Positions 1,453 to 38,621 of a stretch of DNA of 64,000 bases are shown here, piece after piece. Origin of the DNA: a virus (Duplodnaviria > Heunggongvirae > Uroviricota > Caudoviricetes); the IMG/VR virus record IMGVR_UViG_3300012346_000380, positions 1 to 64,000 of that record; one strand, given 5' to 3'. Position 1 is the stretch's first letter, and each line of letters opens with the position of its first letter. The notes beneath the pieces are model-generated. The model did not search any database and had not been told where the DNA came from. It was given only the letters and a program-made list of their open reading frames with translations. A program made the translations under genes and the position numbers.

Positions 1453-1462
1453 CATACTGTTT

Positions 1463-1537: not shown

Positions 1538-1548
1538 ATTTAAATAGT

Positions 1549-5378: not shown

Positions 5379-5389
5379 TTTTTATAGTA

Positions 5390-12757: not shown

Positions 12758-14185
12758 TTAAACAATTGGAGCGTATCTCTCGCTCAAGATTGTTTTGTCC
12801 ATGATTTGCTGTGGAGATTCAATATCTCCTCCAAGTAAACTTGTCATAATTGCTGGTGAGAAACCTGAAACTAATGCAGTTCCTGCTTTGTCAAAAGCAA
12901 CTGGCACTCCACCGTTTCTAGATTGAATATTCCAGTAAACAATTTGAGGCATTTTGTAACCTGAAGACTCATACATGTCGTTAATTACTTGTTGAGCTGT
13001 TGGATTCCATGATGCTTCATTTCTCCATGAGCTAGATCTAACAGCCTGATTAAATTCCATATCTGACAAGATTAGAATTTTGTTTGGCATCTCATCTTGA
13101 GACAATTTATGTTTAGTGGCCTGATCTAAGATCAGCTTGAAGGTCGCCTCGAGATTTGTTGACATTCCCCAATCGGAACATGACATCTGTGCGTAGCGAT
13201 CTTGCAATGAACCACTTAGTACTTGTAACTGTGGAGAGTTTGAAAATGTTATAAATGCATCTTTGAAAGGACCTTCATTTCTTTCAGAAATATAAAGACC
13301 TAAAGAGATTGCAACATCCATACATGTTACAGTTTTACTACCACCTGCTGAGCAAGACATAGAACCTGAAACATCCACCACTGGTAAAATCATATCGTTT
13401 GCTCCTTCTAAATAATTAGGAAGGGCTTTCCATTGTTCGTTTGCTACTTTTGCATTTCCATGAGTTAATGACTTAGTCACGTCATAAGGATAAACTGCAC
13501 CTGCATTAATTTTAGCTTCACCTTTCACTAAAGATTGGATATATGCTGAATAACTTTCGTATGCATTTTTACCGAAAGCTTTTTGGTAACGTGCTGATGC
13601 TACTGATGGTAATTTACCGAATTCGATAGAATCCCATTCTTTAGCACACATTTTAGTTTCAACTACATTAGTCAAATTAACTAAAGTTTTACGGTATTGT
13701 TTTGGAGATAAATCCATGAATTTACGTAACTTTTCAGCATTTTGACCTTTACGTGGCATCCATTTAGCGCATAAACCATTTTCTGCTTTAATAGCATTTT
13801 CGATTATAATCAACGCATCGTTTTCTAAATAAGTTCCAAAAAGAGATAATAAGTCATCGAAACGACCATACTCTGCAATCAAACCTAAATTTGGTTTTAA
13901 GGCTAAATCATGATTTTCAGCTAAGTAAACTAAAATGTCTTTAAAGACTTGACGTTCACCTGCACCACCTCTAACATCTCTTGCCCAAAACAAAAGTTTC
14001 ATAGCACGCTTAGGATCTTCATTGAAAGCTTTTGAAAAAGTTGCGATCAAACGTTGTTTGTCTTGGCCTCTCATTGCTCCAATATTAAAGAATAAGTCAA
14101 CACATGCATTCAATGAAGTTGAATTTGTTGCCATTCCATTTTCTGTTACGATGTCTTCTTGTCTTAAAGCGTCTACTAAGTTCAT
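12758..14185 (-). CDS. Ro60/TROVE-like protein with C-terminal vWA domain (Rsr ortholog candidate)
   Basis: 475 aa. The N-terminal helical region is followed by a vWA MIDAS motif VVDVSGSMS and downstream LILSDMEFN. This is the architecture of the Ro60 (TROVE + vWA) family, whose bacterial and phage members partner with Y RNAs. Confidence 0.5.
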   Translation of the reverse strand: MNLVDALRQEDIVTENGMATNSTSLNACVDLFFNIGAMRGQDKQRLIATFSKAFNEDPKRAMKLLFWARDVRGGAGERQVFKDILVYLAENHDLALKPNLGLIAEYGRFDDLLSLFGTYLENDALIIIENAIKAENGLCAKWMPRKGQNAEKLRKFMDLSPKQYRKTLVNLTNVVETKMCAKEWDSIEFGKLPSVASARYQKAFGKNAYESYSAYIQSLVKGEAKINAGAVYPYDVTKSLTHGNAKVANEQWKALPNYLEGANDMILPVVDVSGSMSCSAGGSKTVTCMDVAISLGLYISERNEGPFKDAFITFSNSPQLQVLSGSLQDRYAQMSCSDWGMSTNLEATFKLILDQATKHKLSQDEMPNKILILSDMEFNQAVRSSSWRNEASWNPTAQQVINDMYESSGYKMPQIVYWNIQSRNGGVPVAFDKAGTALVSGFSPAIMTSLLGGDIESPQQIMDKTILSERYAPIV

Positions 14186-14493: not shown

Positions 14494-15093
14494 TTATTTT
14501 TCTAACTCCTCTGTGATGATGCGTTTACCTCTTAAGATACGATTTTTGATAGTTTGCAAAGGCAAATCATATTTGTCTGCAATATCTTCATACTTCATGT
14601 TGTTAAGTAAGCGATCAATTACAATCTCGCGATAAATTGGTTTCAAAGATTGAATAGCCTTTAAAGCTCCAGTGTATTGACTTTGTAATTCTTCATCTTC
14701 ATCAATAAAGTCTTGTTCAGTTTTAGCTTCAGAATCTTCTATCAATTGAGAAATATCTCCACCGATAAAACCTTCATCACCGACTTCAATACCGAATTCA
14801 GCTAATTTATTTAAAGATGTTTTCTTGTTACGTTCGTTAATGTAACCTAAACATTCATTAAATGCAATGCGATATAACCAAGTTGTGATTTGATATTGTG
14901 GATCATATTGATCAATCTTAGTCCACATTTTAGTTAATGTGTTTCCTACAATGTCCTCAGTCGCTTCGCTATCTTTAACAATTTTATTAATATAAGATTT
15001 TAATCCTGGTTTAACTTTACGATAAAGTGCTGTAAAATCCTTTTCTGATTTTGTCTCTAAAAAATTCTCTGTAAGTTCTCTGTAGTTTAACAT
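14494..15093 (-). CDS. sigma-70 family (ECF-type) RNA polymerase sigma factor
   Basis: Region 2 is TEDIVGNTLTKMWTKIDQYDPQYQITTWLYRIAFNECLGYINERNKK. Region 4 HTH is YEDIADKYDLPLQTIKNRILRGKRII. Confidence 0.7.
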   Translation of the reverse strand: MLNYRELTENFLETKSEKDFTALYRKVKPGLKSYINKIVKDSEATEDIVGNTLTKMWTKIDQYDPQYQITTWLYRIAFNECLGYINERNKKTSLNKLAEFGIEVGDEGFIGGDISQLIEDSEAKTEQDFIDEDEELQSQYTGALKAIQSLKPIYREIVIDRLLNNMKYEDIADKYDLPLQTIKNRILRGKRIITEELEK

Positions 15094-16867: not shown

Positions 16868-17662
16868 TTATATATTAACTTCTTGCCAGATAGGATTAAA
16901 CCAAAAAGTTCTACCATTTCTGTCTGTTATCTTGCTCATTTTTGGATTGCCATAACAAATCATGAAATCTGACCACGAATCTACTTCAACTTTTTTGCCA
17001 AATGGATTCTCCCAGTCTTTTAATTGACCTCCGCCCAATCTGTAGGCTTGTAAAGGTAATAGTTTACAAAGTTGATAGATTTCAGGATAACTCTGTAAGG
17101 CTTCTCGAGCACTTATAAATGGATTGCAATCTGTTCTATATAAAATTTCAGCTCTTAAATAATTGCCTATACCATTAAAGTATTTTTGATTCATTAAAAC
17201 CTCATGAATTGGCTTGTCAAAATCTTTTTTGTTGATATTAGCTTTAATATTTCTGACAAAGTCTTGAAAGTTTGAAATTGGATCTGGACCTCTGTTGTCT
17301 GACCAAGATTCGGCTAGTTTCCATTTGCCAAAGCGTCTAACATCTACAAAATCTAAAGAACCATCATCTGATTGAAAACGCAAGTGTGAGTGTTTTAAAA
17401 GCTCTCCAACACCTATCCATTTAAAATGACCTGACATACCCATAGTCATACGTAATTTAACACTTTGAATTGAATTTAATTTTCGTAAAGTTAGAAGCAA
17501 TTCTTTACCCTGACTTTCTGCGTAAATTGTAAAAGCATGAAATGGCAACTCTATTTCTTGGCCTTTATGCGCTGGATTCTTTTTTATAATGTAAAAAACA
17601 CGATCTTTAGCTTCGTGATTGACGTAATCTGCGGTAAGTTTTAATTCTGCTAATTCTGGCAT
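16868..17662 (-). CDS. Fpg/Nei family DNA glycosylase (endonuclease VIII-like)
   Basis: N-terminal MPELAEL (catalytic P2, E3, E6). The H2TH motif is NGIGNYLRAEILYRTDCNPF. Confidence 0.6.
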   Translation of the reverse strand: MPELAELKLTADYVNHEAKDRVFYIIKKNPAHKGQEIELPFHAFTIYAESQGKELLLTLRKLNSIQSVKLRMTMGMSGHFKWIGVGELLKHSHLRFQSDDGSLDFVDVRRFGKWKLAESWSDNRGPDPISNFQDFVRNIKANINKKDFDKPIHEVLMNQKYFNGIGNYLRAEILYRTDCNPFISAREALQSYPEIYQLCKLLPLQAYRLGGGQLKDWENPFGKKVEVDSWSDFMICYGNPKMSKITDRNGRTFWFNPIWQEVNI

Positions 17663-20211: not shown

Positions 20212-20949
20212 CTACTTTTCGAACGTTGGTTTCAACCACATTCCATCTTGAAATAAAACTTCTTCGATCATTCCAGGATGTATGTCTTCTAATACGAATA
20301 ACATTTGCAAAGAAGTCATTGTATCTGCATGAAAACATTTAGTAAGTTCTTCTCTAATTCTTTGAGCACTTACAACCTCTTTCATTTTTACCCAAAGCAA
20401 TGGTTCTGCAATTGCTCTTTGAATATCTTCACACATTACAAAACCTTTAGTGATTGAAAATCTAAAAGCTCTTAGAATTCTCAAAGGATCATCCATAAAG
20501 GTTAACTTAGGATCTAAAGGTGTTACAAGTATCATTTGTTTTAAATGTTCTTGACCGTCAAACAAATCGATAATAGTTCCATCTTCAGCTTCTGCTAATG
20601 CGTTAACTGTAAAATCTCTACGCACTAAGTCATCTTCAAGAGTTCCAAGTTCTAAGATTGGTCTACGAGTTCCTTCTTCGTACCCAACTTCTTTACGAGC
20701 TAAAACAAAGTCAGCCACCATACCTTCATTCTCATGACCTTGTGGAAACTTAGCACGAATTGTAAAACAATCTGGCGTACTTAAAAAGATTGTAAACATG
20801 TGATGATCTAACCAATCTGTCATGATTTGAAATCCTTCTTCTACGGTTCTGTCTAGATTATCTAAGACAAATGTAAAATCAATATCGTTGGACTCTAGTC
20901 CAAGTAATCTATCTCTTACGCAACCTCCTACTTTAAATATTTTTGGCAT
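20212..20949 (-). CDS. class II tRNA nucleotidyltransferase head-domain protein (CCA-adding enzyme / poly(A) polymerase family, minimal form)
   Basis: N-terminal VGGCVRDRLLGLESNDIDF is the hallmark GGxVRD..DxD motif of Pol-beta-type CCA/A-adding enzymes. Confidence 0.7.
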   Translation of the reverse strand: MPKIFKVGGCVRDRLLGLESNDIDFTFVLDNLDRTVEEGFQIMTDWLDHHMFTIFLSTPDCFTIRAKFPQGHENEGMVADFVLARKEVGYEEGTRRPILELGTLEDDLVRRDFTVNALAEAEDGTIIDLFDGQEHLKQMILVTPLDPKLTFMDDPLRILRAFRFSITKGFVMCEDIQRAIAEPLLWVKMKEVVSAQRIREELTKCFHADTMTSLQMLFVLEDIHPGMIEEVLFQDGMWLKPTFEK

Positions 20950-24294: not shown

Positions 24295-24900
24295 TTAGTA
24301 CTTTTTTACTAAATATTTTTCATACGAGCCGCTAACTCGTTGGTTTGGAAAGTAATAAGACTTGAATTTTTTTCCATTTAAAGAGATCGTTTTTGTAAAT
24401 CCAACTGGAATCATAGCTCCGGTGGTGTTTCTAATAGATCCAAAAAAGTCTAATGTAATTAAAACTGAAACTTTATTATTAATGGCCAACTCTTTTTCAT
24501 AGGATTCTAAATCTTTCCATTGGCCTCTATTTAAATCTTTGTGTTGCAACGCGCAATTAACATAAGAAAAGGTTTCTTTTAAAGCAGTTTCATCACAATT
24601 AAAATCAGCGGCTGGAGCCATGTGTCCTTTATCGTAGTCGTTGTGTGCATAATCTAGATCATCTGCAGTGTGAACATCTGATTCTACATAAAAATTTAAA
24701 CCTTGTCTAGAATTATAATTTGCTTTAGATTGTTTGGAGTTACATAACACATCGTAAGTAACCATAAGAGGTTGCTCCAGACTCTGTGAATAAACAGAAG
24801 TATAGTGTTGTTTTTTAATTGTAACATTTTGTAATTCTCCAGTGGGATTGAAGAAAAATAGCAGCCAAGAGGCTGCTATAATTTTAACAAGGGGTGCCAT
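24295..24900 (-). CDS. secreted DNA/RNA non-specific endonuclease (Serratia nuclease / EndoG family, DRGH-type active site)
   Basis: Signal peptide MAPLVKIIAASWLLFFF. The catalytic motif DKGHMAPAADF is of the RGH type (beta-beta-alpha-Me finger). Confidence 0.55.
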   Translation of the reverse strand: MAPLVKIIAASWLLFFFNPTGELQNVTIKKQHYTSVYSQSLEQPLMVTYDVLCNSKQSKANYNSRQGLNFYVESDVHTADDLDYAHNDYDKGHMAPAADFNCDETALKETFSYVNCALQHKDLNRGQWKDLESYEKELAINNKVSVLITLDFFGSIRNTTGAMIPVGFTKTISLNGKKFKSYYFPNQRVSGSYEKYLVKKY

Positions 24901-24910
24901 GCATTATATA

Positions 24911-25738
24911 TTAATCTAGTTTTTCGCCGCAATTAGGGCAAAACTTCCAACTTTGTTTCTTCATGCGAGTTCCACAAGAAGAACAATAGTTTCTTATATC
25001 TTTGATTTCTGTTTGTTTTGCAGATTCTGGTAAGATTTTCCATGTTGAAGTTGCGCATGCAAAAAATTCAAAGTCCTGATTTGTAGTGCTAAAACTTTGT
25101 TTTGATTTTGAGCCACCTTCAATTCTTCCTGTTTCCAAAGTTTCTAAAGAACTAACAACATGCGCATTTAATTGTGCATTATTGGTAATAGTTGAGTTGG
25201 TTGTAAAAGTAGTAGTTGGATTTAGATTTCCAGTGCCTGAGCTGTAGTAAAATACGTCGCCCGCATAAGGTTGGCCTACAAATGGACTTGAATTCCACGG
25301 AGCTTGAATAATTCCAGTCCAAGGTCTTGAAGATATAACTTCAGTTTCTTTGTAAAATTCTACCTTAACAGAACCATTATTTTCAATAGCTTTTAAAACT
25401 TCTGGTGTAGTTCCAGAATCCACTGTGTAAGTATTGAACTTAAACTTTTTGTTTGTATCAATAAAACGATCTAAGAAATACCTTTGACCTGGTCTAATTA
25501 CTAAACCTGAGGTAGAAATTAAGCTGTTATTGATGTAGATTTTTGCAAGTACAGAGACTTGGTAAGGATTAAAGAGTTCAATTTGAAACTCATCGCCATC
25601 TTTAAGATAAATGACGTCGGCATAAGCCTTTAAACGATTGTTGTTAAGCGCAATATAAGCGCTCGGTTGATTTGTTTTCATAGTGCTAATTAGTTTTATT
25701 AAAATCCTTTTATTGCTTTGCAACAATTCTAAAGCCAT
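24911..25738 (-). CDS. hypothetical protein with a C-terminal zinc ribbon (CSSCG..CPNCG)
   Basis: ORF track. The N-terminal part is rich in beta-strand-forming residues. Confidence 0.45.
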   Translation of the reverse strand: MALELLQSNKRILIKLISTMKTNQPSAYIALNNNRLKAYADVIYLKDGDEFQIELFNPYQVSVLAKIYINNSLISTSGLVIRPGQRYFLDRFIDTNKKFKFNTYTVDSGTTPEVLKAIENNGSVKVEFYKETEVISSRPWTGIIQAPWNSSPFVGQPYAGDVFYYSSGTGNLNPTTTFTTNSTITNNAQLNAHVVSSLETLETGRIEGGSKSKQSFSTTNQDFEFFACATSTWKILPESAKQTEIKDIRNYCSSCGTRMKKQSWKFCPNCGEKLD

Positions 25739-25817
25739 TATTGACTCAGGACCTCAAGAGCATGGGCACCACTCTTATTAAAAAGAAAAGGAACCATTGC
25801 TGATTCCTTTTCTGTAG

Positions 25818-25899
25818 CGGAGAGGACAGGATTCGAACCTGCAACCCGTTTCCGAGCGACGGTTTTCAAGACCGCTCGACAACCATTGTCCACCTCTCC
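25818..25899 (-). tRNA. tRNA-Ser (anticodon TGA), type II
   Basis: Minus-strand sequence GGAGAGGTGGACAATGGTTGTCGAGCGGTCTTGAAAACCGTCGCTCGGAAACGGGTTGCAGGTTCGAATCCTGTCCTCTCCG. Acceptor GGAGAGG/CCTCTCC. Anticodon stem GCGGT/ACCGT with loop CTTGAAA. Long variable arm and T-arm GCAGG/TTCGAAT/CCTGT. Confidence 0.75.
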
Positions 25900-25933: not shown

Positions 25934-26191
25934 TTAATTTTTGTTTACAAAATTTTGTAAAGTAACTTCTAATTCAGAAATTTTAGTGTGTAATTGTTCT
26001 ATATATCTATCATTAATTTCAACATTTGACTTCATTGATTGAATTTCTGCTTTTAATTTAGAATTAATCAATGTCAATCTTGCGTTTAATTTATTAACAA
26101 TAATATCTGTTGGTTTTATACTTTTTTCTATTTTCTTTGAGATAACAAAATAAAGTATTGCTGCTACTATTATGACGAATACGTATATCAT
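25934..26191 (-). CDS. hypothetical membrane-anchored coiled-coil protein
   Basis: N-terminal TM helix (IYVFVIIVAAILYFVI) followed by heptad repeats. Confidence 0.45.
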   Translation of the reverse strand: MIYVFVIIVAAILYFVISKKIEKSIKPTDIIVNKLNARLTLINSKLKAEIQSMKSNVEINDRYIEQLHTKISELEVTLQNFVNKN

Positions 26192-26913
26192 GGCTTTTCT
26201 ACTTGAATATTAAAATTAACAACACATCTGTGAGATTTACCATAAAAAGGTGTCACTGAGTGTACAATATCATAGGGCCATAAAACTAACATGCCTTTTT
26301 TAGGTCTTATATAGTAATCATAGTCTCTAACATGAAAACAGAACGCACCTGAATATGTATGGTCTGCAAAAGGTTCTCCATCTGACAAGTAATAACCTCC
26401 AGAAAAACCTATGAATGGAGCTTCGTTTGGATCCCATCGACAGTGATTGTGCTTGTTGTGGCCTCGACCATCGTGTGGTTCATACCACTGAGCCCAACTT
26501 TCTGTAATTTTAGGATCTAATATAGCATCTGACGGTACAGCACCAATAGCTTTAATGGTATGTGTAAACGCTTCGATAATACGTTGACGCATTTCTTTAA
26601 CATCGACGTTATCTATTTCTAAAAAGTCATTTGGTGGCACTGAAAATCTTGAGCCTATTGGTGGAAAACCATCTTCAACCCAAGCGTCTTGATTTCCATA
26701 CCAATCTGAATAACCGTCATAGCGATCTTTATCATATTGTCCAGGCAATTCTTGACCCATTCTTCTTTGCAATTCATCTAAGTGTGTGAAACCCATTTGA
26801 AAAAGTCTATCGTGAAATTCATGATCTTCGAACTGATGTTGATAAACTGGAATAGGCGCAAGATATTTAATATCTGGAATATTCGTATCTATTAAAGGTT
26901 TATTAAAGTACAT
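26188..26913 (-). CDS. 2OG-Fe(II) oxygenase superfamily protein (P4H/PhyH-like), putative
   Basis: The C-terminal jelly-roll signature is LVLWPYDIVHSVTPFYGKSHRCVVNFN (distal His plus Arg for 2OG). The upstream His/Asp cluster is HNKHNHCRWD. Confidence 0.4.
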   Translation of the reverse strand: MYFNKPLIDTNIPDIKYLAPIPVYQHQFEDHEFHDRLFQMGFTHLDELQRRMGQELPGQYDKDRYDGYSDWYGNQDAWVEDGFPPIGSRFSVPPNDFLEIDNVDVKEMRQRIIEAFTHTIKAIGAVPSDAILDPKITESWAQWYEPHDGRGHNKHNHCRWDPNEAPFIGFSGGYYLSDGEPFADHTYSGAFCFHVRDYDYYIRPKKGMLVLWPYDIVHSVTPFYGKSHRCVVNFNIQVEKP

Positions 26914-26914
26914 A

Positions 26915-27736
26915 TTATATGTGTTTAAAGTAGATGTTTTTATTAACTTTCGTATTGATATATTTATTAATCTTAATTACTGGATCATTTGATAAATCAT
27001 AACCCTTTCGTTCCATGTGCATTCTCGTATCATTGTGAGTACCATACGTTACAGCTGGTTCGAATTTAGCAATGTATTCATCTACTGTACAATTGGCAAA
27101 CAAATAAAAAGCATGTTCTTCAATACAATTTAGAATATTATTCTCGGTTGCAATTTTTATTAGCTCTTCACCAACATTTGGATTTCTAGTATAAAAGAAA
27201 CTAAAATTTGGAGTTACTAACATGTTTTTAAATTTCCAACTATATTTTCTTAACTGAGCTTCATGAGAAGCTATATAAGCTAATAATTCAGGTGGAGCTT
27301 CATTGTTATAACGCTCTTGCGCTGAATGCGTCATTATATCAACTATGCCAATTCCCTCAGAATCATGATATGCGTACAAAGGTACTTGAATATCGTTACC
27401 CCTTTGTAATTGTTGATAAAAATGATCATCTAGTGGTTTTGCTAAATAGCAATCCCAATCTAAAAATATAAATTCGTTAAATATTTTACCAGCATGTTGC
27501 ACAGCTAATAATTTATGCATGAAATGTGAATGAATAGTAGAATAACTTGCATCAGAAGAAAATTCAGATAAACATACAACTTTATAGCCTAATGATTTTA
27601 AAAAAGTTTCATTCTCAACACCCCATGTAATTACAATTTCATCTGTAAAAATGGGATTTTGAAACACTTCATTTCTTGTGCGTTCTACATCTCCCCAAAG
27701 AGCTCTGACAATTGGTATTTTATTATTAATAGCCAT
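26915..27736 (-). CDS. glycosyltransferase-like protein, family A copy 1 (DxD-type motif FIFLDWDCYLAKPLDD)
   Basis: It is a paralog of 29608..30396. Shared blocks are WGD, LDWD, PLYAY, VPNF.FFY and CIEE..Y.FANC..EYI.K.EP. Confidence 0.4.
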   Translation of the reverse strand: MAINNKIPIVRALWGDVERTRNEVFQNPIFTDEIVITWGVENETFLKSLGYKVVCLSEFSSDASYSTIHSHFMHKLLAVQHAGKIFNEFIFLDWDCYLAKPLDDHFYQQLQRGNDIQVPLYAYHDSEGIGIVDIMTHSAQERYNNEAPPELLAYIASHEAQLRKYSWKFKNMLVTPNFSFFYTRNPNVGEELIKIATENNILNCIEEHAFYLFANCTVDEYIAKFEPAVTYGTHNDTRMHMERKGYDLSNDPVIKINKYINTKVNKNIYFKHI

Positions 27737-28706
27737 GTTTTTCTTTATTCCAATACTTATTTAAGTTAAAGTAGTATAAGTAATTGCTACCACCTAAATC
27801 CCAGATTTCATCATAATACCGTTGGCATTCTCTTTCCATAAATTCTGGATCATTTGCAAATACAACTTTAGCTAACCAAACGTGTTCCCATTCAAATTGA
27901 TCTTTGGTTTTATCATGTTCAACTGGATAATACCATTGTTCAGAATAACCAAAGCGTCTGTCTTCTGGTTTTGCATAATCATTATCAGCTAGAAATATTC
28001 TATCAGTTAAAGTATTTGTATGATACTCATGTTCTCTGATAACATGACCAAGAATTCCTTGATCTGTTGCTAACCAAAACCACTCAGGCACCTCATTCTC
28101 ACCAGAATTGATTAATTTCTTATGTGCTTTAACATATTCATCAACCGCGGAAGCTGTCCCAAAATAAACAAATGATGTATTGGGTGAATACGCATTACAA
28201 TTATAATTATGTGGTATTTCTACGTGTTTAATTTCAGATTCCCACTGTTGTCTTGTAAAATAATAACTGCCTCTTGGTATTTCCCAGTGGCCAATTCCAA
28301 TATCTCCATAATAAAAATCGGCTGGAACTTCGCCTCTAACTATAAAGTCTTGATCTAGAAATACAAAAGGTTCTTTTTCATTTTGCAAAGCTTGTATTTT
28401 ACCAGAAGTCCAATAATATGCAGGATCTACATTCTGTAAATTATCTAAGAATTCTGTGTCGATCTCATCGTATAATTCAGTTATACCTATTTGCTGATAA
28501 TAACTTAAACCTATTGAATCTGTGTATAATTTTATAGGTCCATTGTGTTTTTTCCACCTAATTGCAGATAAAATAGTGTATAGTATCTGATAGTTTGGAA
28601 GCTCATAAGTTTTTGAACTTATATTTTTTGTAATTGAAAAACCGTGACCTCTTAGACGTTCTTTATTAAAAAATGGAGCCGTCCAATTTACATGTATAGC
28701 TTTCAT
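27726..28706 (-). CDS. hypothetical enzyme-like protein, family B copy 1 (contains FVFLDQDF)
   Basis: It is a paralog of 30420..31343. Shared blocks are KLYTDS/KLYCDN and YDEIDTEFL/WDEIDTDLL. Confidence 0.4.
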   Translation of the reverse strand: MKAIHVNWTAPFFNKERLRGHGFSITKNISSKTYELPNYQILYTILSAIRWKKHNGPIKLYTDSIGLSYYQQIGITELYDEIDTEFLDNLQNVDPAYYWTSGKIQALQNEKEPFVFLDQDFIVRGEVPADFYYGDIGIGHWEIPRGSYYFTRQQWESEIKHVEIPHNYNCNAYSPNTSFVYFGTASAVDEYVKAHKKLINSGENEVPEWFWLATDQGILGHVIREHEYHTNTLTDRIFLADNDYAKPEDRRFGYSEQWYYPVEHDKTKDQFEWEHVWLAKVVFANDPEFMERECQRYYDEIWDLGGSNYLYYFNLNKYWNKEKHGY

Positions 28707-29608
28707 TAAAGTGCGTATAGTTGTTTTAATTTTTCATATCTCTCTTCAATCTGATCTAAATAATACTTGTCATATTTAGTAGTTGAAATAAAGTGCATTA
28801 CCTTACTTTGTTTCATAAGCTCTAAGTCTTGACTTAATATGTAGCCGTCTGTATCTACTAATAAGATGTGTTTTTTATCAGAATAAGCTCTATTTAATAT
28901 AGATAGAAATGATTGTTCTTGTAATAAAATTTTGTAATCATCCCAACCAGTACCTTGCATTGTTTTATGATCCCATCTACTATAAATAAAAGCATCTATT
29001 AACCATTGCATGTCGTGTGTTGAGAAAAACTTGCTCATTATAGAATTATTAAAGCCCATAAATCCAGAATTTCCAGCTCTAGCATTACCGAAACATCTAT
29101 AATAATTTTCAAATACTTCATTACCGAAGCGTTCTACTAATTTACCCATCATTGGTTTATCAGCATCGTGATATTGATCTGCTATTGAAAATGGAATCTT
29201 AGAGCAAACAAAGTGTACAATGTCTTTAAATTCTAAACCATTAAATAAAATATCGTCATCATAAGTTAGTAAATAATTTACGTTTCTTGCATGATGTAAA
29301 TAATGATATAATAAGATGTGATAAATCCATTCCCATTCTTTAAATGCCTTTACATCGGGTTCTATACCAAAATTTCTAACATAATCTTCTAGAAATTGAT
29401 TATCGTAAAAGAACAGTTTTATGTTTTCTGGAACTATCTTTCTAGCCATTTCTTGCATTTCAAGATTTGGATTATTCACATTGATGTGAATTTCAGCCTT
29501 GTTCATTTCCTTTCTGTGAAAAGAAATTAATCTACATATTTCAGCTAATGCAACTACTTGTTGTTTATCAAAAGTTCTCCATGAACGTGCAACTATAAAA
29601 TCTCTCAT
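28706..29608 (-). CDS. glycosyltransferase-like protein (GT-A-type DxD motif LLTYDDDILF)
   Basis: ORF track. It is inserted between the two A/B module copies. Confidence 0.35.
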   Translation of the reverse strand: MRDFIVARSWRTFDKQQVVALAEICRLISFHRKEMNKAEIHINVNNPNLEMQEMARKIVPENIKLFFYDNQFLEDYVRNFGIEPDVKAFKEWEWIYHILLYHYLHHARNVNYLLTYDDDILFNGLEFKDIVHFVCSKIPFSIADQYHDADKPMMGKLVERFGNEVFENYYRCFGNARAGNSGFMGFNNSIMSKFFSTHDMQWLIDAFIYSRWDHKTMQGTGWDDYKILLQEQSFLSILNRAYSDKKHILLVDTDGYILSQDLELMKQSKVMHFISTTKYDKYYLDQIEERYEKLKQLYAL

Positions 29609-30396
29609 TATTCGTGTATTAAGTAAATATCTTTGTTAATCTTTGATGCTATATAATTATTTATTCTTTCTATTGCTCTGTCTTCTGTTAAATCAAAATG
29701 ATAGCAATTATCTTCTCGACCTCTGATAACCACAGGCTCATATTTTTCAATATATTCGTTTATAGAACAATTTGCAAACTGATACATGCAAAATTCTTCT
29801 ATACATGTTAAAATACCACGTTCTTTGTATATTTCAAGTAATTTAGATGCTGTTGGTGTATAATTAGAATAAAAGAAACAAAAATTAGGAACTACTCGCA
29901 AATCTTCCCAAGTCCAGCTATTTTCCATTAACATTTTATTCTGCACTGTCAGCCATGGAAATATATTAGGATCTAGATCTTTAACCCATTGTTTTTCTGG
30001 GTTTTGTTCTATTTGAGCTAGTACTTTATTTTCATAATTAGTCGGATATGCGTATAAAGGACATTGCAATCTTCCTTTAGTTCTAATTAAATTCCAAAAG
30101 TTATCATCTAATGGTTTAACTATTTGAACATCCCAATCTAAAAATAAATATTCTAAGTATGCGTGTTCAGCTCTTTTTAAGCACTCTAATTTATGCACAA
30201 AGTGTTTATAAACTGTGCTATATTCTAATTCTGTTGAATCGTAATGGATTAAAACGGTTTCATAACCCATAGATCTAAAACGCTCATAATTTTCTCTACC
30301 ATAAACGTATACAACTTCATTATCAAACAAAGGTTTTGGTGGCACTTCTTCCCAAGTGCTTTCTTGATCTCCCCAAAATGCTCTAATTATCTTCAT
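29608..30396 (-). CDS. glycosyltransferase-like protein, family A copy 2 (YLFLDWDVQIVKPLDD)
   Basis: Paralog of 26915..27736. Confidence 0.4.
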   Translation of the reverse strand: MKIIRAFWGDQESTWEEVPPKPLFDNEVVYVYGRENYERFRSMGYETVLIHYDSTELEYSTVYKHFVHKLECLKRAEHAYLEYLFLDWDVQIVKPLDDNFWNLIRTKGRLQCPLYAYPTNYENKVLAQIEQNPEKQWVKDLDPNIFPWLTVQNKMLMENSWTWEDLRVVPNFCFFYSNYTPTASKLLEIYKERGILTCIEEFCMYQFANCSINEYIEKYEPVVIRGREDNCYHFDLTEDRAIERINNYIASKINKDIYLIHE

Positions 30397-30419
30397 TAGT
30401 CAGTATTATCTAACTTATA

Positions 30420-31343
30420 TTAAGAAACTAAATATTGTTTATTATTCTCTAAGTTGTTATCTGTAAGTTTGCATAAAATAAAATCCTTTATTTCTGGAGC
30501 AATATCTGCCATTTTATTAACAATCATATCAATATACCATTGTTGTTTATTCGGATCGTGTTTAAAGCTGTATTTGTCTAACCACAAATGAATGGCATGA
30601 TCATAACTTTGTTTTAAATTCCAAAAACCAGAATTACTTTTAAGCCATGTACCACCATCTTTGAAATTAGCAGCTAACATACATGTATAATTGTATTTAC
30701 TTTTGGAAATTAAAGCAGCTAAAAGATATTGTTCTGCGAAAACAGTGTAATCGTTATTTCTAAATTTAGGTGATTGTAATTGACTAGCTCTATTGATATA
30801 GTCTAATGAAAGTTCGGTATATTCTTTATTTAAATTCATATCGCCCATGTAAAAAGAACCCATATTAAAAGGATTAGCCCAAAAATTAAGTTTTTGTTTG
30901 GGTTTAAAATCAACTTCTTTTAATTTCTCTCTGGGTTTTGCGTACGCTGAATTCATAAACCAAAGTTCTTTATGATAAACACCTAAATCATAGCCATTAA
31001 AAAGATTAAACTGAAACATATCAGTGAAATTGACAAAATCAAGATCACTCATCATATATGGCTTGGTTTGGCTATTCATAACAAGAAGTTTGCCAGAAGA
31101 CCAAAATCTTGTTTTATTAATAGAAGTTGTTTGATTTAATAGATCTGTATCAATTTCATCCCATATTTCTAAAATATCTAGGGATTTAAATACTTGATAC
31201 GTAGCATTATCACAATAAAGTTTAGTTGGCCATTTATACAATTTCTTCCACAAGAGACATTGAGCTATAGTACAATATAACTCGCTCTTCCAAATCTTAA
31301 ACGGTTTGTCTAATTGTTGGCAAATATGGATGTGTGTAATCAT
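30420..31343 (-). CDS. hypothetical enzyme-like protein, family B copy 2
   Basis: Paralog of 27726..28706. Confidence 0.4.
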   Translation of the reverse strand: MITHIHICQQLDKPFKIWKSELYCTIAQCLLWKKLYKWPTKLYCDNATYQVFKSLDILEIWDEIDTDLLNQTTSINKTRFWSSGKLLVMNSQTKPYMMSDLDFVNFTDMFQFNLFNGYDLGVYHKELWFMNSAYAKPREKLKEVDFKPKQKLNFWANPFNMGSFYMGDMNLNKEYTELSLDYINRASQLQSPKFRNNDYTVFAEQYLLAALISKSKYNYTCMLAANFKDGGTWLKSNSGFWNLKQSYDHAIHLWLDKYSFKHDPNKQQWYIDMIVNKMADIAPEIKDFILCKLTDNNLENNKQYLVS

Positions 31344-33937
31344 TACTGTGCAACTCTTACATAAGGCGCATTTGTTCCAGTGCTGTCGTTGAATTTTTGA
31401 ACCAACATGTTTAAAGCTTGCGTTAATGTTGCAATATCTTTTGATAAAGCTGTATTATCTGCAGCTTTAGCTTGTTCTGCTTTTTGTTGCTCTGGTGTTT
31501 TAGGTATACTTTTATTAACTTTAGTATCTGTACTTGTTACCATACCTGTTACTTTTTCTACAAATCCACCGATAGCTTTACCAGTTTCTTCTATAAGTCC
31601 TGAATTACTATCACCTTGTTTTTCAACAGCTGTTTCTAAATTAACTACAGTTTTACTTAATTCTTCTACAGCTTTTAGTAATTCTTGTGTTAAAGTTTTC
31701 ATAGCATTCTGTGCATCTGGTTTGGATAAATTAGCTATCGAAGTAAACATTGCCGTAGAAGCTTGAACCGCTTTAATATTTAAACCGTTGGCAGCTTTTG
31801 CAAATTTAGTATATGCATTTGCTATTTTTTCAGAAGCATTTGCGCTCTTAGTTAAATTTTCAGCATTAGCTTCTTCTATAAAAATAGACCATGCTCCTAA
31901 TCCTTTAACAACACCTCCAGTATAACCTGCAATTTTACCAAATGAGGTAGCTACAGTTTCCATAGGTTTTGATATAGTTGTAATAGCATTTGCTCTATTT
32001 AAAATCATATCTAATAAATCAATAGGCGATTTGGTTTTTTCACCACCAAAGAAAGAGCTTATGCCATCTATAATAGATTTACCTAAGTTTGCGATAGAAG
32101 CTCCTAAGCCTCCAATTGCTTGTCCAGCTAATGCACCAACTAATGTTAACCATGCACCTGCAAGTAAAACAATTCCACCTGCTAAAGCCGGTAAATTTTC
32201 TATACCTATTTCATTTTTTAATCTCGTGAAAGCATTTATCATGCCATTTACAGGTGCCATCATTCCGGCGGTTAAAGCTTGCATACCACCGACAAATTCA
32301 GTTGGCACTTTACTTAAAATCCAAGCTACGGCCCAAATACCGGCTGCGATAGTTATGACACCGATAACACCAGCTATAAGAGCTGCTTCACCTGTACCGC
32401 CTGATAAGGCTATAACTGCTCCAATTACACCAATTACACCAGCAAATACACCAATAGCTAATGCAGCATCTAATGTCCAACTTAATGGTGGTGTTTTAAA
32501 TGTATCTGGTAAAACTGAAAATATGTATGAAATTGCAAGAATAGCAATAGCTGTTGCAACAGTTCCTAAAACACCTAATAAAGCTTCTTTAGGACCAACT
32601 CCAAATTTTTGGAATACCATGGCTAACAAGGCAAATGGAATTGCAAAGACAAGTATAGCTAAACCTGCTTTTAAAGTTTCAATTGGATCTGGTCCTTTTA
32701 ATCCACTTAATGATTCTGCAGCTTGTGAAAATACCCAAGCAACACCGGCAATTGCAATAGCGATTAATGGAATTGCAATAGCTCCATAAAGTAATTCTTG
32801 TGGACTAGCGCCTTTAACGGCTTTCATTACAAAATAGAATGAAACTGCAAATAAAGCAACTGCTGTACCCGCAACTAAAGACCATGTCATATCTGGAGCT
32901 TTATATTGACCATCTGGTAAATATTGAAATGCGTAAGACAATCCAACAATACCCAATGCTATGGCTCCAATTGCTAATGAGCCAAACATAATTTGTTTAA
33001 GAGAAGCTCCTTTAACAGCTTTCATAATTAAAAAGAATGAAACTGAAAATAAAGCAACTGCAAAACCAACTTGAAGTGACCATAATAAATCTGGAGCTTT
33101 ATATTTGTCAGGCAACATTTGAAATATCAAAGCTGTTCCAACAATACCAGCTGCTACTCCAAGAAATGAAAGTACTACCATGCCCATATCTTTAACGCCT
33201 AATTCGTTGTCTTTAATTGTTTTTGCAAATAAAACAAATGCATAAGCTGAAGGAATCATAATAAGACCTATGGCTAATGCAGTTAAGAATTGTCCAGCTC
33301 CAATAACTGGCATAAGAGATAATATAGCACCTGATAGAACTAAAGCAACTGAGATTCCAACCATAGTTAATAAAGTTGCTCCCATTATAGAAAACATATT
33401 ACCAGTATCTGGTTTTGAACCTGAGAAACCTTTGTAACTTGCGCTTACCAGACCTTGATTTTGTCCAAGAACATCTGCAATTTTAACAAAAACTGGTGCT
33501 ACTAAAGCTAATGTAGCTGCTACTGCAAGCGCAGATAACAGTTGCATTGGATTTAAAACTGGCATAAACATAAATATACCGGCAGCCGAAACTAATGCAG
33601 CTGCAACACCTATAATCATCACGGCAGTCAAACCAGTATCTTTCATAGACATCGGTTTAAATCCTCCAGAGCTTTCTACTCTTTCGTCTCTACCAGAATT
33701 ATCACTACTACGATTTTTAGATTCTTTAATTTGATCTTTGATCAAAGACTTAATGTCCTTTAATATAGAAGTTTGCGTAGATAATTCAGAAGCCATATCG
33801 TTAGCAGCACTTTTTAAATCTACTGTTAGAACTTTATGAATATCTTGCGTTAACATCATTTCCGCTTCTGAAACTGCGGTTAATTTATCTAACGGTGAAA
33901 GTAATGACTGGAGTGCCTGTACGGGATTAAATTTCAT
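31343..33937 (-). CDS. tail tape measure protein (putative)
   Basis: 864 aa. N-terminal coiled-coil, then about ten or more long Ala/Gly/Ile/Leu-rich hydrophobic helices, then a C-terminal helical region. It lies downstream of the sheath, tube and chaperone-like genes. Confidence 0.55.
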   Translation of the reverse strand: MKFNPVQALQSLLSPLDKLTAVSEAEMMLTQDIHKVLTVDLKSAANDMASELSTQTSILKDIKSLIKDQIKESKNRSSDNSGRDERVESSGGFKPMSMKDTGLTAVMIIGVAAALVSAAGIFMFMPVLNPMQLLSALAVAATLALVAPVFVKIADVLGQNQGLVSASYKGFSGSKPDTGNMFSIMGATLLTMVGISVALVLSGAILSLMPVIGAGQFLTALAIGLIMIPSAYAFVLFAKTIKDNELGVKDMGMVVLSFLGVAAGIVGTALIFQMLPDKYKAPDLLWSLQVGFAVALFSVSFFLIMKAVKGASLKQIMFGSLAIGAIALGIVGLSYAFQYLPDGQYKAPDMTWSLVAGTAVALFAVSFYFVMKAVKGASPQELLYGAIAIPLIAIAIAGVAWVFSQAAESLSGLKGPDPIETLKAGLAILVFAIPFALLAMVFQKFGVGPKEALLGVLGTVATAIAILAISYIFSVLPDTFKTPPLSWTLDAALAIGVFAGVIGVIGAVIALSGGTGEAALIAGVIGVITIAAGIWAVAWILSKVPTEFVGGMQALTAGMMAPVNGMINAFTRLKNEIGIENLPALAGGIVLLAGAWLTLVGALAGQAIGGLGASIANLGKSIIDGISSFFGGEKTKSPIDLLDMILNRANAITTISKPMETVATSFGKIAGYTGGVVKGLGAWSIFIEEANAENLTKSANASEKIANAYTKFAKAANGLNIKAVQASTAMFTSIANLSKPDAQNAMKTLTQELLKAVEELSKTVVNLETAVEKQGDSNSGLIEETGKAIGGFVEKVTGMVTSTDTKVNKSIPKTPEQQKAEQAKAADNTALSKDIATLTQALNMLVQKFNDSTGTNAPYVRVAQ

Positions 33938-35482: not shown

Positions 35483-36037
35483 TTATGCTAATACTTCTTT
35501 CCAAGTATCACATCTCCAAGCAACTTCTAAAGATTCTGGTTCTGCTTCAGCGTATGACAATTCAGCAGTAAATCCTAAAGCACTTGTGATAAAACAATCT
35601 TCTAAAGTTACTGTTCTATAAATATCTCCAGCTCTATTGAACTGAACGATAACAATAGTACCTACGTAATCTTTTTTAAGACCCATAACACCAGTTTGAG
35701 GATCAAACTGTTTGTTATACCATTGTCTCATTGTTTTATACAAATATGCTTGATTAGCATTGTTTAAGTTTAATGAAAAATTAATAGTTACATCTACAGA
35801 AGTTTCACTAGGCATACCAGCGAAAGATCTTGTAGAGAACTTAAATTTTTGTGCAACCGCTTCAATTCCTTTGTATAATTCCAATCCTGAGATTGTGTTT
35901 ACGTGTTGAATTAATAAAGGAGCATCTGCTACTCCAGTCGGAGGCAATACAGTAACTTCGAATAAATTCTTTTGTACTGGTTCATATTGTTGACCTTTCT
36001 TTGCAGTCTGGTCTTGCGAATAGTGTGGTAAAGCCAT
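35483..36037 (-). CDS. tail tube protein (putative)
   Basis: 184 aa, immediately downstream of the sheath gene. Assignment is by position and size only. Confidence 0.45.
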   Translation of the reverse strand: MALPHYSQDQTAKKGQQYEPVQKNLFEVTVLPPTGVADAPLLIQHVNTISGLELYKGIEAVAQKFKFSTRSFAGMPSETSVDVTINFSLNLNNANQAYLYKTMRQWYNKQFDPQTGVMGLKKDYVGTIVIVQFNRAGDIYRTVTLEDCFITSALGFTAELSYAEAEPESLEVAWRCDTWKEVLA

Positions 36038-36077: not shown

Positions 36078-38621
36078 TTAAGAAAAGTTTCCAGTTTTGA
36101 TTTCTCCTGTGTTTAAAATAGTAGTTCTGTGAACAACAACTTCTAAACCTTTAACTGGTTCAACAAAAGTATCAATAATACCCATATTGTGGTCGATAAC
36201 ATCATCAGTGTTATTTGTTTGATCCATAATATTTTGGAAATCGTAAATACCTGTGTCAGCTTTTACAGATTGCATAAATGCATCCGCTAAAGTTTTGATT
36301 TCTAATCTTGTTTGTGCTGTATTAAATTCAAATACGTAGTTTTTAAGAATGTTAGCCATACCGTCTTGGATATAGATTAATACCTCTCTTACGTGAGCTG
36401 AAGATAATGCAGATTTAACCGATTGTTGAGCTGTTTTATTACCTAAGATAGTTAATCCTGCGCCTCTTTGGAAGACGATTGGGTTAATACCGAATGGTTC
36501 TAAAATATCTCTATCAGCTTTGTCAAACGCGTATTCTACACCTACTACATTAGCTCCTGATACAACACCTCTTCTAGGTCCTGCAACGATTGACCAAGGT
36601 AAAGCATTGAAATATTTGTCAATAAAGTTATTAGATACGTAAGCTGCTGGTGGAACAATAGTGTCTTTACCATTTTCTCTTACTAATAAACCTGGTCCAT
36701 AATAGAATGCGTAATTAGCTCCATCATTGATAGAAGGTAAAGCATATAATGAACTTGGGTTTTTATCTAAGTTACCACCGTCTTTGATGTAAGCAACGTT
36801 AAATTCGTTGTTATCATTTTTGAATGATGGATCAGTTGATTTTTTGAAATCTGAAACTGTAGGCGCATTTAAGATAGCTGCTACGTTTTGTCTTTCGTGT
36901 GCTAAGAATGCTAATTCTTTCTTGTTTAAGATAGAACCATCTTCGTAAGATGCGAAAGTATCTACAATATATCTAAAATCGATAACGTCTTTGTCAACTA
37001 AAGCTGCGAATAAACCAGTTCCTGTTAATTGAGATAAAACTCCAGAAATTGTTTTATTAGAAACTGTTGCTTTTTCTAAAACCAATGGTTTGTAAGAAAC
37101 GGTAGCTTCTTCAAATGAAATGTTATAGAATCCTGACCATGTAGTTGCAACTGGTTGGCTACAAGTTACTGTCCATACATTTCCTGATCTTTGTACTCTT
37201 TGTACTTTAGCTAATCTGTTAGCTGCTAATGCATCAACATAATGTCCTTTTTTGATAGGGAATGCATCTGCTGCACCTGAAGTTGAATATGTCATAGTGA
37301 ATGTAGATGCGTTATTTGCATAAGTTCCACCTGCTAATTCTTTAACTTTATCGTGTGCGTATTCTGCTGTAACAATTTGATCATATACATTAACACTTCC
37401 AAGACCTACTAAAGTATATGCTGAATTTAAAGTAGCTGAATCAAATGTGATTTCAGTATCTAAACCATTCATAGCAACGTTAGTAATTTCAGTGTAAGTA
37501 TTAGCTGTAGAAGTTAATAAATATTGACCGATTTGGAAATCAGCTGTTAAATCTTCACCATCAATTGTTAAAACTGTAGATGTTGCTGAAGCTCCATTAG
37601 CTACTTCAACGATGTTTGCTTCATAAGTAGTTACGTTAGTTTGTACATATTCTGCAATATATGAAAGTAATTCATAATTTTCAGCTTCGTCATAGATATG
37701 ACCAACTAAATCAACTTTAGTTCCATTCTCATCAGTTACTAAATCTTCGTTAACTGCACAGAATAAACCTGTTCTTCTAGCTTCTTGGTTAATACCAGCT
37801 TCAATGTATAAGTTTCTTCCTTCTAAATCTTTAAAGTTTGGAATTAATGAACCAGTGTATTGTGCTAATAATGTAACTTGTCTTAAAGCAGAAAATTCAT
37901 TTAATTTTCCTTTGATTAAACCGTTTGCATCAAAAAATGCACCGTAGATTGGATCTGTGTCCATATCTGCTGGGTTAAATTTACCTTTGAAAACGAATAC
38001 ATCTACCATGAAATCTGAAACTAAATCAAAATCATTTAAGAATGATGGAACATTACCTTCACCATACCATTCTCTTGCAGAAATTTCAAAAGATGCAACA
38101 TCTTGTGCTTTTCTTACAATAACCGTGATAGGTTCTTGTTTAATGTTAATAAAGTTTAAAACTCTATCTTCGTCTAAGTTTCCAATAGTATCTAAAACTG
38201 CTTTATCTTCTGGGAACCAGAATTTATCAATGTTAAAATAACTAGCTAATTCGTTAGCTCCGTCTAATGCTGAAATAGAATCAACAGAACCATTAGTTAC
38301 TGGAGATTGGAAAGCAATAGTATCGTTTTCATCAATGTTTGCGATATTTAAAGCCAAAATTGGACCTCTACCTAAAGCAGCTAATGCTGATCTGTGGAAG
38401 AACATACCTAATTTTTCTAAATTCGTGTCAATTGAACCGAAAATAGCATTAAATTCTTCAGCTGTTTGTACAAAAACTGGAGTGTTGTAAGGACCTTTTT
38501 TAGAATGTCCAACTACTAATCTGATTGTTTGAACGTTGTTAGTTGTTGTTTGAGACTTGTCAAATTCAAGTCTGTAAACACCAGAACTTTTAAAGTTCAA
38601 TAATTGAGGACTAAGTGCCAT
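36078..38621 (-). CDS. contractile tail sheath protein
   Basis: N-terminal SSGVYRLEFDKSQ matches the sheath pGVY..E.D.S motif. Large (847 aa). Followed by the tube gene. Confidence 0.6.
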   Translation of the reverse strand: MALSPQLLNFKSSGVYRLEFDKSQTTTNNVQTIRLVVGHSKKGPYNTPVFVQTAEEFNAIFGSIDTNLEKLGMFFHRSALAALGRGPILALNIANIDENDTIAFQSPVTNGSVDSISALDGANELASYFNIDKFWFPEDKAVLDTIGNLDEDRVLNFINIKQEPITVIVRKAQDVASFEISAREWYGEGNVPSFLNDFDLVSDFMVDVFVFKGKFNPADMDTDPIYGAFFDANGLIKGKLNEFSALRQVTLLAQYTGSLIPNFKDLEGRNLYIEAGINQEARRTGLFCAVNEDLVTDENGTKVDLVGHIYDEAENYELLSYIAEYVQTNVTTYEANIVEVANGASATSTVLTIDGEDLTADFQIGQYLLTSTANTYTEITNVAMNGLDTEITFDSATLNSAYTLVGLGSVNVYDQIVTAEYAHDKVKELAGGTYANNASTFTMTYSTSGAADAFPIKKGHYVDALAANRLAKVQRVQRSGNVWTVTCSQPVATTWSGFYNISFEEATVSYKPLVLEKATVSNKTISGVLSQLTGTGLFAALVDKDVIDFRYIVDTFASYEDGSILNKKELAFLAHERQNVAAILNAPTVSDFKKSTDPSFKNDNNEFNVAYIKDGGNLDKNPSSLYALPSINDGANYAFYYGPGLLVRENGKDTIVPPAAYVSNNFIDKYFNALPWSIVAGPRRGVVSGANVVGVEYAFDKADRDILEPFGINPIVFQRGAGLTILGNKTAQQSVKSALSSAHVREVLIYIQDGMANILKNYVFEFNTAQTRLEIKTLADAFMQSVKADTGIYDFQNIMDQTNNTDDVIDHNMGIIDTFVEPVKGLEVVVHRTTILNTGEIKTGNFS

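Follow-up and report, generated by a model that had tools for sequence, protein, structure and literature searches.

Multi-transferase gene clusters of lytic viruses that have been resolved by experiment decorate, to our knowledge, either the virion, as in chloroviruses, mimiviruses and mycobacteriophages, or the DNA (cf. PMC9614988; Freeman 2023 as cited in PMC12619734). For the sugar genes of large aquatic phages three speculative readings circulate, which place the product on the host surface, on DNA or on the virion. Iyer et al. have interpreted islands of such genes as capsular or lipopolysaccharide (LPS) modification or secondary-metabolite systems (PMC7824862), and four core orthogroups of the 'moraphages', in which no tape measure gene was recognised, are putative glycosyltransferases (PMC12619734). 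Here we describe a locus in a 64,000-nucleotide stretch of an uncultured tailed phage (positions 1 to 64,000 of IMG/VR record IMGVR_UViG_3300012346_000380; hereafter the window), where five glycosyltransferase genes of three families, named A (A1 and A2), B (B1 and B2) and C, and a gene for a 2-oxoglutarate (2OG)-Fe(II) oxygenase follow a putative tape measure gene. Our analysis shows that the oxygenase, A and B form a conserved cassette that moves between unrelated uncultured aquatic phages.

The locus had been noticed in an earlier reading of the same DNA (the original prediction), and its six co-oriented minus-strand open reading frames (ORFs) have exactly the coordinates given there (Table 1). 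That reading took A, B and C for nucleotide-sugar transferases on the strength of motifs, all of which are present: WGD, FLDWD, PLYAY, PNF.FFY and CIEE..ANC..EYI.K.EP in A, and KLY.D and DEIDT in B. The two paralogous pairs that it recognised are also real, with A1 and A2 being 37% identical over 267 aa (E 1e-65) and B1 and B2 22% identical over 268 aa (E 2e-17). The Asp blocks of the three families are invariant across 42-45 homologs per family, the window paralogs included. In family A, the invariant D93-W-D95 follows the core strand 89-92 and is accompanied by an invariant distal H272. Family B has an invariant D118-Q-D120 after the core strand 114-117, with H275, W277 and K280 in the distal part, and family C an invariant D117-D118-D119 with invariant distal H272 and K278. 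The distal invariant His is thus common to all three families in the sequence alignment, and its placement in the active site is predicted. In GT8 enzymes such as LgtC and glycogenin, the third metal ligand is a His in the C-terminal strand, often within the motif H-x(2)-G-x(2)-K-P-W. A2 retains the R, K, D-W-D, E and C-terminal H that are invariant in family A, and B2 retains all invariant residues of family B, D-x-D and H...K included. Since both A and both B paralogs keep every invariant residue, all five transferases look catalytically intact, as far as their sequences can tell.

Both B proteins pass the cutoff (27 bits) of Pfam DUF6734 (PF20508), and scans of the Pfam, PHROGs and NCBIfam libraries gave no match for A1, A2 or C. 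PF01501 (GT8) was not matched by any of the five window transferases, even at E<=1. Among the homologs of C, however, 9 of the 45 aligned members (30-71% identical to C) match Glyco_transf_8, the best at 1.7e-6, and one homolog is fused to a GT25 domain. Homolog searches, with hits almost only in metagenomes, returned 61 proteins for A, none with a Pfam domain, 69 for C, several of them with Pfam GT8, and 196 for the B1 family, with DUF6734 in 120 of 120 among the matches listed. NCBI cluster names of the B and C homologs are all 'hypothetical'. Profile comparison suggests that A and B are distantly homologous (hhalign probability 78%); no signal was obtained for A against C or B against C, and a search of PDB sequences with the A, B and C profiles returned nothing.

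Structure models of A1 and B1, both of high confidence, show one Rossmann-like alpha/beta/alpha domain and can be superposed on GT-A enzymes of known structure. Their best structural matches are GT8-type enzymes, with an identity of only about 10-12%. The fold matches include LgtC, WbbM, the Skp1 alpha-galactosyltransferase Gat1 and the glycosyltransferase domain of LH3 (all four among the top ones), the viral proteins A64R of PBCV-1 and R699 and R655 of Mimivirus, and the toxin domains of TcdA, Lgt1, SetA and YeGT. In the viral fold library BFVD, transferase matches are weak (TM <= 0.46). None of the six cassette proteins has a hydrophobic segment, which argues for a cytoplasmic location. Taken together, the folds of A1 and B1, the invariant DxD and His and the GT8 matches among C homologs show that the locus encodes five soluble GT-A glycosyltransferases in three families, the characterised relatives of which are retaining and metal-dependent. 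A, B and C are GT8-like at the level of fold or superfamily, and are not members of GT8 by sequence.

That A, B and C come after the putative tape measure gene is the only point that speaks for their being non-enzymatic tail or baseplate components, the outcome that the original prediction had named as its refutation. The catalytic-type DxD and His are invariant, the fold results point to nucleotide-sugar enzymes, and in other phages the same cassette genes are also located far from structural genes. Such a structural role is therefore extremely unlikely, and the glycosyltransferase reading stands.

The sixth gene had been described as a P4H/PhyH-like 2OG-Fe(II) oxygenase (P4H, prolyl 4-hydroxylase) on the basis of its C-terminal signature. 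The signature is real: the protein matches phrog_81 ('2OG-Fe(II) oxygenase') at 4.7e-18 and scores just under the cutoff of 27 bits with Pfam 2OG-FeII_Oxy_5 (PF13759, 24.5 bits) and Oxy_3 (PF13640, 23.4 bits); the match to TIGR02466 (2e-5) is also under cutoff. At the level of the family, PF13759 is matched by all 21 aligned full-length members (best 8.5e-23) and PF13640 by 19 of the 21 at E<=0.01, each time more weakly. Judged from these profiles, the protein is an enzyme of the 2OG-oxygenase fold and of the PF13759/TIGR02466 branch, with membership at the family level. The oxygenase part of the earlier description thus holds, but the protein is probably not a bona fide P4H or PhyH. A TET/JBP enzyme was rejected, since neither the window protein nor 20 homologs match Tet_JBP (PF12851). 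An unrelated 201-aa neighbour of the cassette in locus L020 has a sub-threshold Tet_JBP match (6e-4) that is weaker than its own Oxy_3 match.

The profile of the oxygenase family matches two uncharacterised structural-genomics entries of the PDB, 3bvc (2.4e-7) and 2rg4 (6.6e-6). Within the family, H218 and R229 are invariant and H155 and H157 nearly so. The distal His (H218) and the 2OG-binding Arg (R229) are classical, whereas H155-N-H157 has a His in place of Asp/Glu and aligns with the same H-x-H in 3bvc. From the alignment, it is possible that the family may have an unusual metal site or carry out unusual chemistry. The literature that we found on PF13759/TIGR02466 assigns this family no function.

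To see how far these genes travel together, IMG/VR was scanned with the A profile, which gave 50 loci, and hidden Markov models of A, B, C and the oxygenase were then mapped onto all ORFs (simple calls of our own in the related loci). Dereplication at 90% A identity left 32 groups. B lies within 5 kb of A in 20 of the 32 groups and abuts it in 15, and an orthologous oxygenase lies within 5 kb of A in 14 and abuts it in 10. A, B and the orthologous oxygenase occur together in 14 of the 32 groups; four more have only a more distant PF13759-like paralog near A. Relatives of the window oxygenase number only 49 among 1.84 billion cluster representatives, which were searched exhaustively. For a family as rare as this, linkage in 14 of 32 groups cannot be due to chance. 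Gene order varies (B'-B-A-Oxy, Oxy-A-(GT25)-A-B and A-B...Oxy were seen), and the minimal form, on a 210-kb contig, consists of putative tape measure, B, A, a 197-aa protein and oxygenase. In L020 (4475-5995), a single 506-aa ORF holds two complete family-A domains in tandem. Outside the metagenomes, neither the locus nor A1, B1, the oxygenase or a distant A had a match in 50,697 deposited phage genomes (megablast and tblastn).

The oxygenase is by far the best-conserved member of the cassette. Its identity to the window protein is 78% in L016, 58% in L011 and L041, 56% in L030 and 55% in L007. In the last three loci, A is only 29-35% identical to that of the window and the A-adjacent B 33-34% (B is absent from L007). 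An oxygenase at 55-78% beside transferases at about 30% in the distant loci suggests a constant oxidation combined with diversifying sugar additions. The functional link between hydroxylase and transferases is stronger than the original prediction could know, and it is very probable that the GT-A transferases and the 2OG oxygenase act as one unit.

The original prediction had further described the locus as a tandemly duplicated two-gene module, and this did not survive the comparison with other loci. The single A genes of L016 and L011 match A2 and A1 at 60% and 53% identity, respectively. Similarly, the upstream B' of L016 shares 51% identity with B2, and B1 is 58% (L016) and 70% (L011) identical to the A-adjacent B. 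Neighbour-joining trees with midpoint rooting agree with this pattern, in which the window copies are closer to genes of other loci than to each other. In a repeat scan of the DNA, the similarity is limited to short stretches that encode motifs; they are 71-78% identical and share a fixed offset of 2678 nt. A recent in-situ tandem duplication of a two-gene unit is ruled out by the trees, the identities and the repeat scan. As the window copies are closer to the genes of L016 and L011 than to each other, the order B2-A2...B1-A1 is, on sequence comparison, best described as a mosaic of old paralog lineages that elsewhere are single or reordered.

The next question is what the cassette modifies. 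One rival target is DNA: the oxygenase would hydroxylate a base, or act on a hydroxylated precursor, and the transferases would build a glycan against restriction. Phage clusters of an oxygenase with several GT-A or GT-B transferases glycosylate 5-hydroxymethylcytosine (5hmC), sometimes near structural genes, and their GT8-like members add the second and third sugars (bioRxiv 10.1101/2023.12.21.572611). ThyA homologs can make 5-hydroxy-dCMP for glycosylation (PMC13326640); a thyA is present in the window and another adjoins the cassette in L007. Since GT8-like enzymes extend DNA glycans and 5hmC clusters exist, the fold alone does not exclude DNA. However, the oxygenase belongs with PF13759 and not with TET/JBP, and no C5-methyltransferase, dCMP hydroxymethylase, dCTPase or dCMP-modifying ThyA was found in the ~49 ORFs scanned in the window (64 kb, against a genome size of some 210-260 kb) or among recurrent neighbours, so that these genes offer no source of a hydroxylated base. 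The L007 ThyA keeps the canonical dUMP-specific Asn of PFNIASY, and canonical thymidylate synthases are also the best matches of the window thyA fragment (548-1; E 1e-48). The suggestion in the original prediction that this partial gene could feed a modification route finds nothing in the window to support it, the fragment being canonical-looking and about 26 kb from the cluster; with both thyA genes canonical-looking, we reject a ThyA link to DNA modification. The enzymes are also acidic, with family medians of the isoelectric point (pI) between 5.5 and 6.3 for transferases and oxygenase and net charges of -5 to -15, the exception being B2 with a pI of 8.3. The type of oxygenase, the lack of modification genes in the scanned ORFs and the acidity of the enzymes all argue against the TET/JBP-type DNA route proposed earlier, and DNA hypermodification is very unlikely.

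Distant versions of the cassette offer two further readings. In the T4-like contigs L041 and L042 (e.g. L041 13674-19808), the cassette lies within a large conserved island of ~20 kb. The islands hold three epimerases, an RmlC-like gene, a GT25, a carbamoyltransferase, an adenosine 5'-phosphosulfate (APS) kinase and an SGNH enzyme, together with a tryptophan-halogenase-like enzyme and further oxygenases. Two more island proteins carry sulfotransferase-like motifs for the loop that binds 3'-phosphoadenosine 5'-phosphosulfate, which is a reading of motifs and not a database match. In L038 (9492-10976), a 494-aa unannotated protein ends in a Cys/Trp-rich tail (CWCPWNYCGHWCNSNYCPTCDF).

Islands of this composition would suit an envelope glycan as target. 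The soluble transferases would then work on intermediates linked to lipid or core lipid at the cytoplasmic face of the membrane and so alter LPS, capsule or a general O-glycan of the host, which would block superinfection or keep progeny off debris, and the oxygenase would tailor a sugar or lipid. The proven surface-conversion systems of phages that we know of are temperate and use membrane proteins of the Gtr type, which counts against this possibility. Two of the top fold matches, LgtC and WbbM, are GT8 relatives, and the T4-like contigs set the cassette among nucleotide-sugar epimerases, the RmlC-like gene, the GT25 ('LPS biosynthesis'), carbamoyltransferase, APS kinase and SGNH genes. Bacterial DUF6734 genes point in the same direction, as a pattern scan gave three loci in metagenome-assembled genomes (MAGs) near GT1-like and CapD-like genes, a weak polysaccharide context; this evidence is thin, none of the three MAG loci having an A gene or the oxygenase. 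Published accounts of such phage clusters propose an effect on the host surface (PMC7824862 section 3.4.10; PMC12801897), which for lytic phages is a hypothesis. The cassette, however, has no flippase, polymerase, initiating transferase or membrane anchor, and expression alongside late tail genes would come late for exclusion. We therefore regard an envelope target as rather unlikely.

Small molecules are frequent substrates of 2OG oxygenases that are compact and stand alone, and it could also be that the cassette glycosylates a small molecule in the manner of secondary metabolism, or inactivates a host protein as toxin glycosyltransferases do, with no structural decoration. The tryptophan-halogenase-like enzyme, oxygenases, carbamoyltransferase and Cys-rich-tail protein of the T4-like islands resemble a natural-product cluster, a likeness also suggested in PMC7824862, and the toxin domains of TcdA, Lgt1, SetA and YeGT appear among the fold matches. 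In the window, however, the cassette consists of transferases and oxygenase only, without tailoring or scaffold-building genes. Five successive transferases would be unusual for toxin-type mono-glycosylation, and the cassette has no export function. Both variants are clearly unlikely.

The arrangement of the genes in the window raises the possibility of another target. The stop codon of the putative tape measure gene overlaps the start of B2 by 1 nt (TAATG), and the cassette is in this way translationally coupled to it. A gap of 23 nt separates B2 from A2; A2/C and C/B1 each overlap by 1 nt (TAATG) and B1/A1 by 11 nt; a gap of 1 nt follows before the oxygenase, the stop of which overlaps the start of an 85-aa gene by 4 nt (ATGA). 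The six genes form one tightly packed unit that lies after the tail genes and is apparently transcribed as a whole. The first strong terminator-like site that the minus strand has past the putative tape measure gene is the hairpin behind tRNA-Ser; with no convincing minus-strand terminator before it, the unit probably spans from the 864-aa gene (or further upstream) to the tRNA, and the hairpin is likely its end. The 85-aa gene is also present in the near-identical contigs L001-L003, and its match to phrog_4172 is weak. The ORF listed at 25738-25893 is a mere shadow of tRNA-Ser(tga).

Table 1. Cassette, flanking features and neighbouring structural genes in the window.
Feature	Position	Strand	Remark
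B2, DUF6734-family GT-A glycosyltransferase, deep 'B-prime' lineage	30420-31343	-	PF20508 28.1 bits
A2, family-A GT-A glycosyltransferase, without Pfam family	29608-30396	-	37% identity to A1
C, distant GT8-related glycosyltransferase	28706-29608	-	homologs match Glyco_transf_8
B1, DUF6734-family GT-A glycosyltransferase, 'A-adjacent' lineage	27726-28706	-	PF20508 38.4 bits
A1, family-A GT-A glycosyltransferase, without Pfam/PHROG/NCBIfam family	26915-27736	-	
2OG-Fe(II) oxygenase, PF13759 / TIGR02466 type, H155-x-H157...H218...R229	26188-26913	-	
Putative tape measure, 864 aa, very hydrophobic	31343-33937	-	position and size only
85-aa protein, N-terminal membrane helix	25934-26191	-	membership in system uncertain
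tRNA-Ser(tga)	25817-25899	-	ARAGORN
Terminator-like hairpin, 13 bp	25813-25784	-	just after tRNA-Ser
Sheath	36078-38621		upstream of putative tape measure
Tube	35483-36037		upstream of putative tape measure
275-aa protein, S/T/N-rich linker, C-terminal zinc ribbon	24911-25738	-	
DNA/RNA non-specific endonuclease	24295-24900	-	after 275-aa protein

We tentatively favour a cassette that works as a glycan assembly line on host nucleotide sugars. The oxygenase would perform one constant oxidation, most simply creating or tailoring an acceptor hydroxyl, and the transferases would attach sugars one after another. In this phage the product would be a lineage-specific oligosaccharide with a maximum of about five residues. 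The target would be a protein made at the same late time, i.e. a virion protein, following the logic by which Skp1, collagen and the capsids of giant viruses are glycosylated; many of the solved structures nearest in fold belong to enzymes of cytoplasmic protein glycosylation. By analogy with these systems, a late (virion) protein as target is quite possible, although doubtful. The most far-reaching version of this reading, in which the A / DUF6734 / PF13759 cassette would be the first case of hydroxylase-coupled O-glycosylation of virion proteins in a bacteriophage, is on the whole unlikely.

Several points weigh against a virion target. Acceptor candidates in the form of collagen-like (G-X-Y) or Pro-rich repeats are absent from all window ORFs scanned. 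The whole window is transcribed in one direction, which makes the operon context weak evidence. The oxygenase belongs to a family without known substrate and has H-x-H instead of the classical H-x-D/E. GT8 enzymes also build LPS outer cores, and in T4-like relatives the same cassette is found inside large sugar-tailoring islands. Such islands have been read as host-surface polysaccharide or secondary-metabolite systems (PMC7824862), and DNA-linked glycans, too, can be elongated by GT8-like enzymes (bioRxiv 10.1101/2023.12.21.572611).

Glycosyltransferase and 2OG-oxygenase genes are numerous in large aquatic phages, and clusters of the two have been reported before. The defined trio of A, DUF6734 and PF13759 appears to be undescribed, as do family A and the assignment of a fold to DUF6734; a literature search for the term DUF6734 found no paper. 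The locus offers a compact, conserved and testable unit of one oxygenase and two transferase families. With it, DUF6734 gains a fold and a probable activity, family A, which has no Pfam, PHROGs or NCBIfam entry, is defined, and PF13759 oxygenases are tied to glycan assembly by gene linkage. If the target were a virion protein, glycosylation of phage virions would extend beyond mycobacteriophages and include a hydroxylation step that is new for phages. Hydroxylase-coupled virion O-glycosylation, if true, would mean that the oxygenase hydroxylates a residue of a structural protein made late, on which two new GT-A families assemble a glycan coat specific to the lineage, and would provide a first function for the widespread, substrate-less PF13759 genes of marine phages and prasinoviruses.

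The window has 32% GC and carries nearly all genes on one strand. They include a large terminase, sheath, tube, major capsid, clamp loader, RNA ligases, a tRNA nucleotidyltransferase, a sigma-like factor and tRNAs, and the window is part of an uncultured jumbo myovirus. The closest relatives of the large terminase are from uncultured huge phages (41%), followed by Tenacibaculum phage PTm1, Sphingomonas phage PAU and Lak phages (31-34%). This fits a resemblance, at the level of sequence, to the Bacteroidota-associated aquatic jumbo phages known as moraphages.

The tape measure named in the original prediction is a putative assignment by size and by position after sheath, tube and a phrog_36717 protein; the protein has no Pfam, PHROG or PDB match and only one weak metagenomic match. 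It has a grand average of hydropathy of 0.59, about 10 long hydrophobic stretches and a repeated YKAPD..WSL. Neighbour families were compared across 60 loci, near-identical copies and the window itself included; a member of its family precedes the module in 12 of them, and in L063 a 931-aa protein occupies this position. The alternative that the 864-aa protein belongs to the glycan system, as a transport component or one of the GT-C type, found no support, and 'putative tape measure by position' was kept. Beyond tRNA-Ser, the family of the 275-aa protein recurs with the cassette in 10 of the 60 loci and that of the endonuclease in 8. The 275-aa protein is a candidate partner or substrate of the cassette.

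Elsewhere in the window, a cluster of tRNA genes for Arg, Thr and Leu lies at 1379-1632 (-). A set of genes resembling RNA repair (4015-6499, 12758-14185 and 20212-20949, all on the minus strand) comprises two RNA ligases (phrog_968 and phrog_562), a 475-aa phrog_850 'RNA-binding protein' and the tRNA nucleotidyltransferase. The window further encodes a DNA glycosylase of the Fpg/Nei type at 16868-17662 (-), which has a Neil1-like DNA-binding motif, and a sigma-70-like factor at 14494-15093 (-); the same glycosylase family occurs in L005 (13417-14229), where the cassette is a few kb away. Only one plus-strand ORF of notable size (47637-48143 (+), 168 aa) does not fall inside an ORF of the minus strand.

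One of the closest known systems is the CAZy family GT8 (glycogenin, LgtC, WaaJ/WaaO, GlyE). It shares with the window proteins the GT-A fold and the DxD after the core strand, and their distal His, behind which B and C have a Lys, may correspond to that of the GT8 metal site; it provides the best structural matches of A1 and B1, and homologs of C match Pfam GT8. GT8 paralogs in series are typical of LPS outer-core and serine-rich repeat protein (SRRP) adhesin glycosylation. Unlike these enzymes, the window proteins are only ~10-12% identical to GT8, none reaches the Pfam family, A has no family and B is DUF6734.

In genomic setting, the cyanophage and jumbo-phage islands of Iyer et al. (2021) are similar in combining paralogous transferases, 2OG oxygenases and sugar-tailoring enzymes, and distant cassette versions sit in islands of this kind. 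The moraphage glycosyltransferase orthogroups of Perez-Hernandez et al. (2025) come from the Bacteroidota jumbo-phage lineage that the window phage resembles. Neither study defined the A / DUF6734 / PF13759 trio or its linkage. Phage DNA clusters (C5-methyltransferase with a TET-like 5mYOX and glycosyltransferases, or a ThyA homolog with glycosyltransferases) likewise join an oxygenase to multiple transferases, GT8-like GT-A enzymes included, sometimes near structural genes. In contrast to them, the window cassette has no methyltransferase, TET/JBP domain or dCMP-modifying ThyA homolog, and its proteins are acidic.

The proposed order of reactions closely recalls the glycosylation of Skp1 (PhyA with Gnt1/PgtA/AgtA or Glt1/Gat1), of collagen (LH3 with GLT25D1) and by Mimivirus L230, which pair one 2OG-Fe(II) hydroxylase with a series of soluble GT-A transferases. 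Gat1 and the glycosyltransferase domain of LH3 are top fold matches, and GT25 genes stand beside the cassette in related phages. However, the window oxygenase is of the PF13759 type and not a P4H or lysyl hydroxylase, and the window has no Skp1-like, collagen-like or Pro-rich substrate. We know of no bacteriophage example of hydroxylation-dependent protein O-glycosylation. Virus-encoded virion glycosylation (PBCV-1 A64R, mimivirus fibrils, mycobacteriophage capsid and tail tube), the other close parallel in logic, is not known to include a coupled oxygenase, apart from the separate P4H of PBCV-1. No sequence relationship to the mycobacteriophage enzymes was found, and the window lineage is known from its genes alone. 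What the locus has in common with these systems is a lytic virus with cytoplasmic transferases of its own, with A64R of PBCV-1 and R699/R655 of Mimivirus among the fold matches and with genes that are predicted to be expressed together with structural genes.

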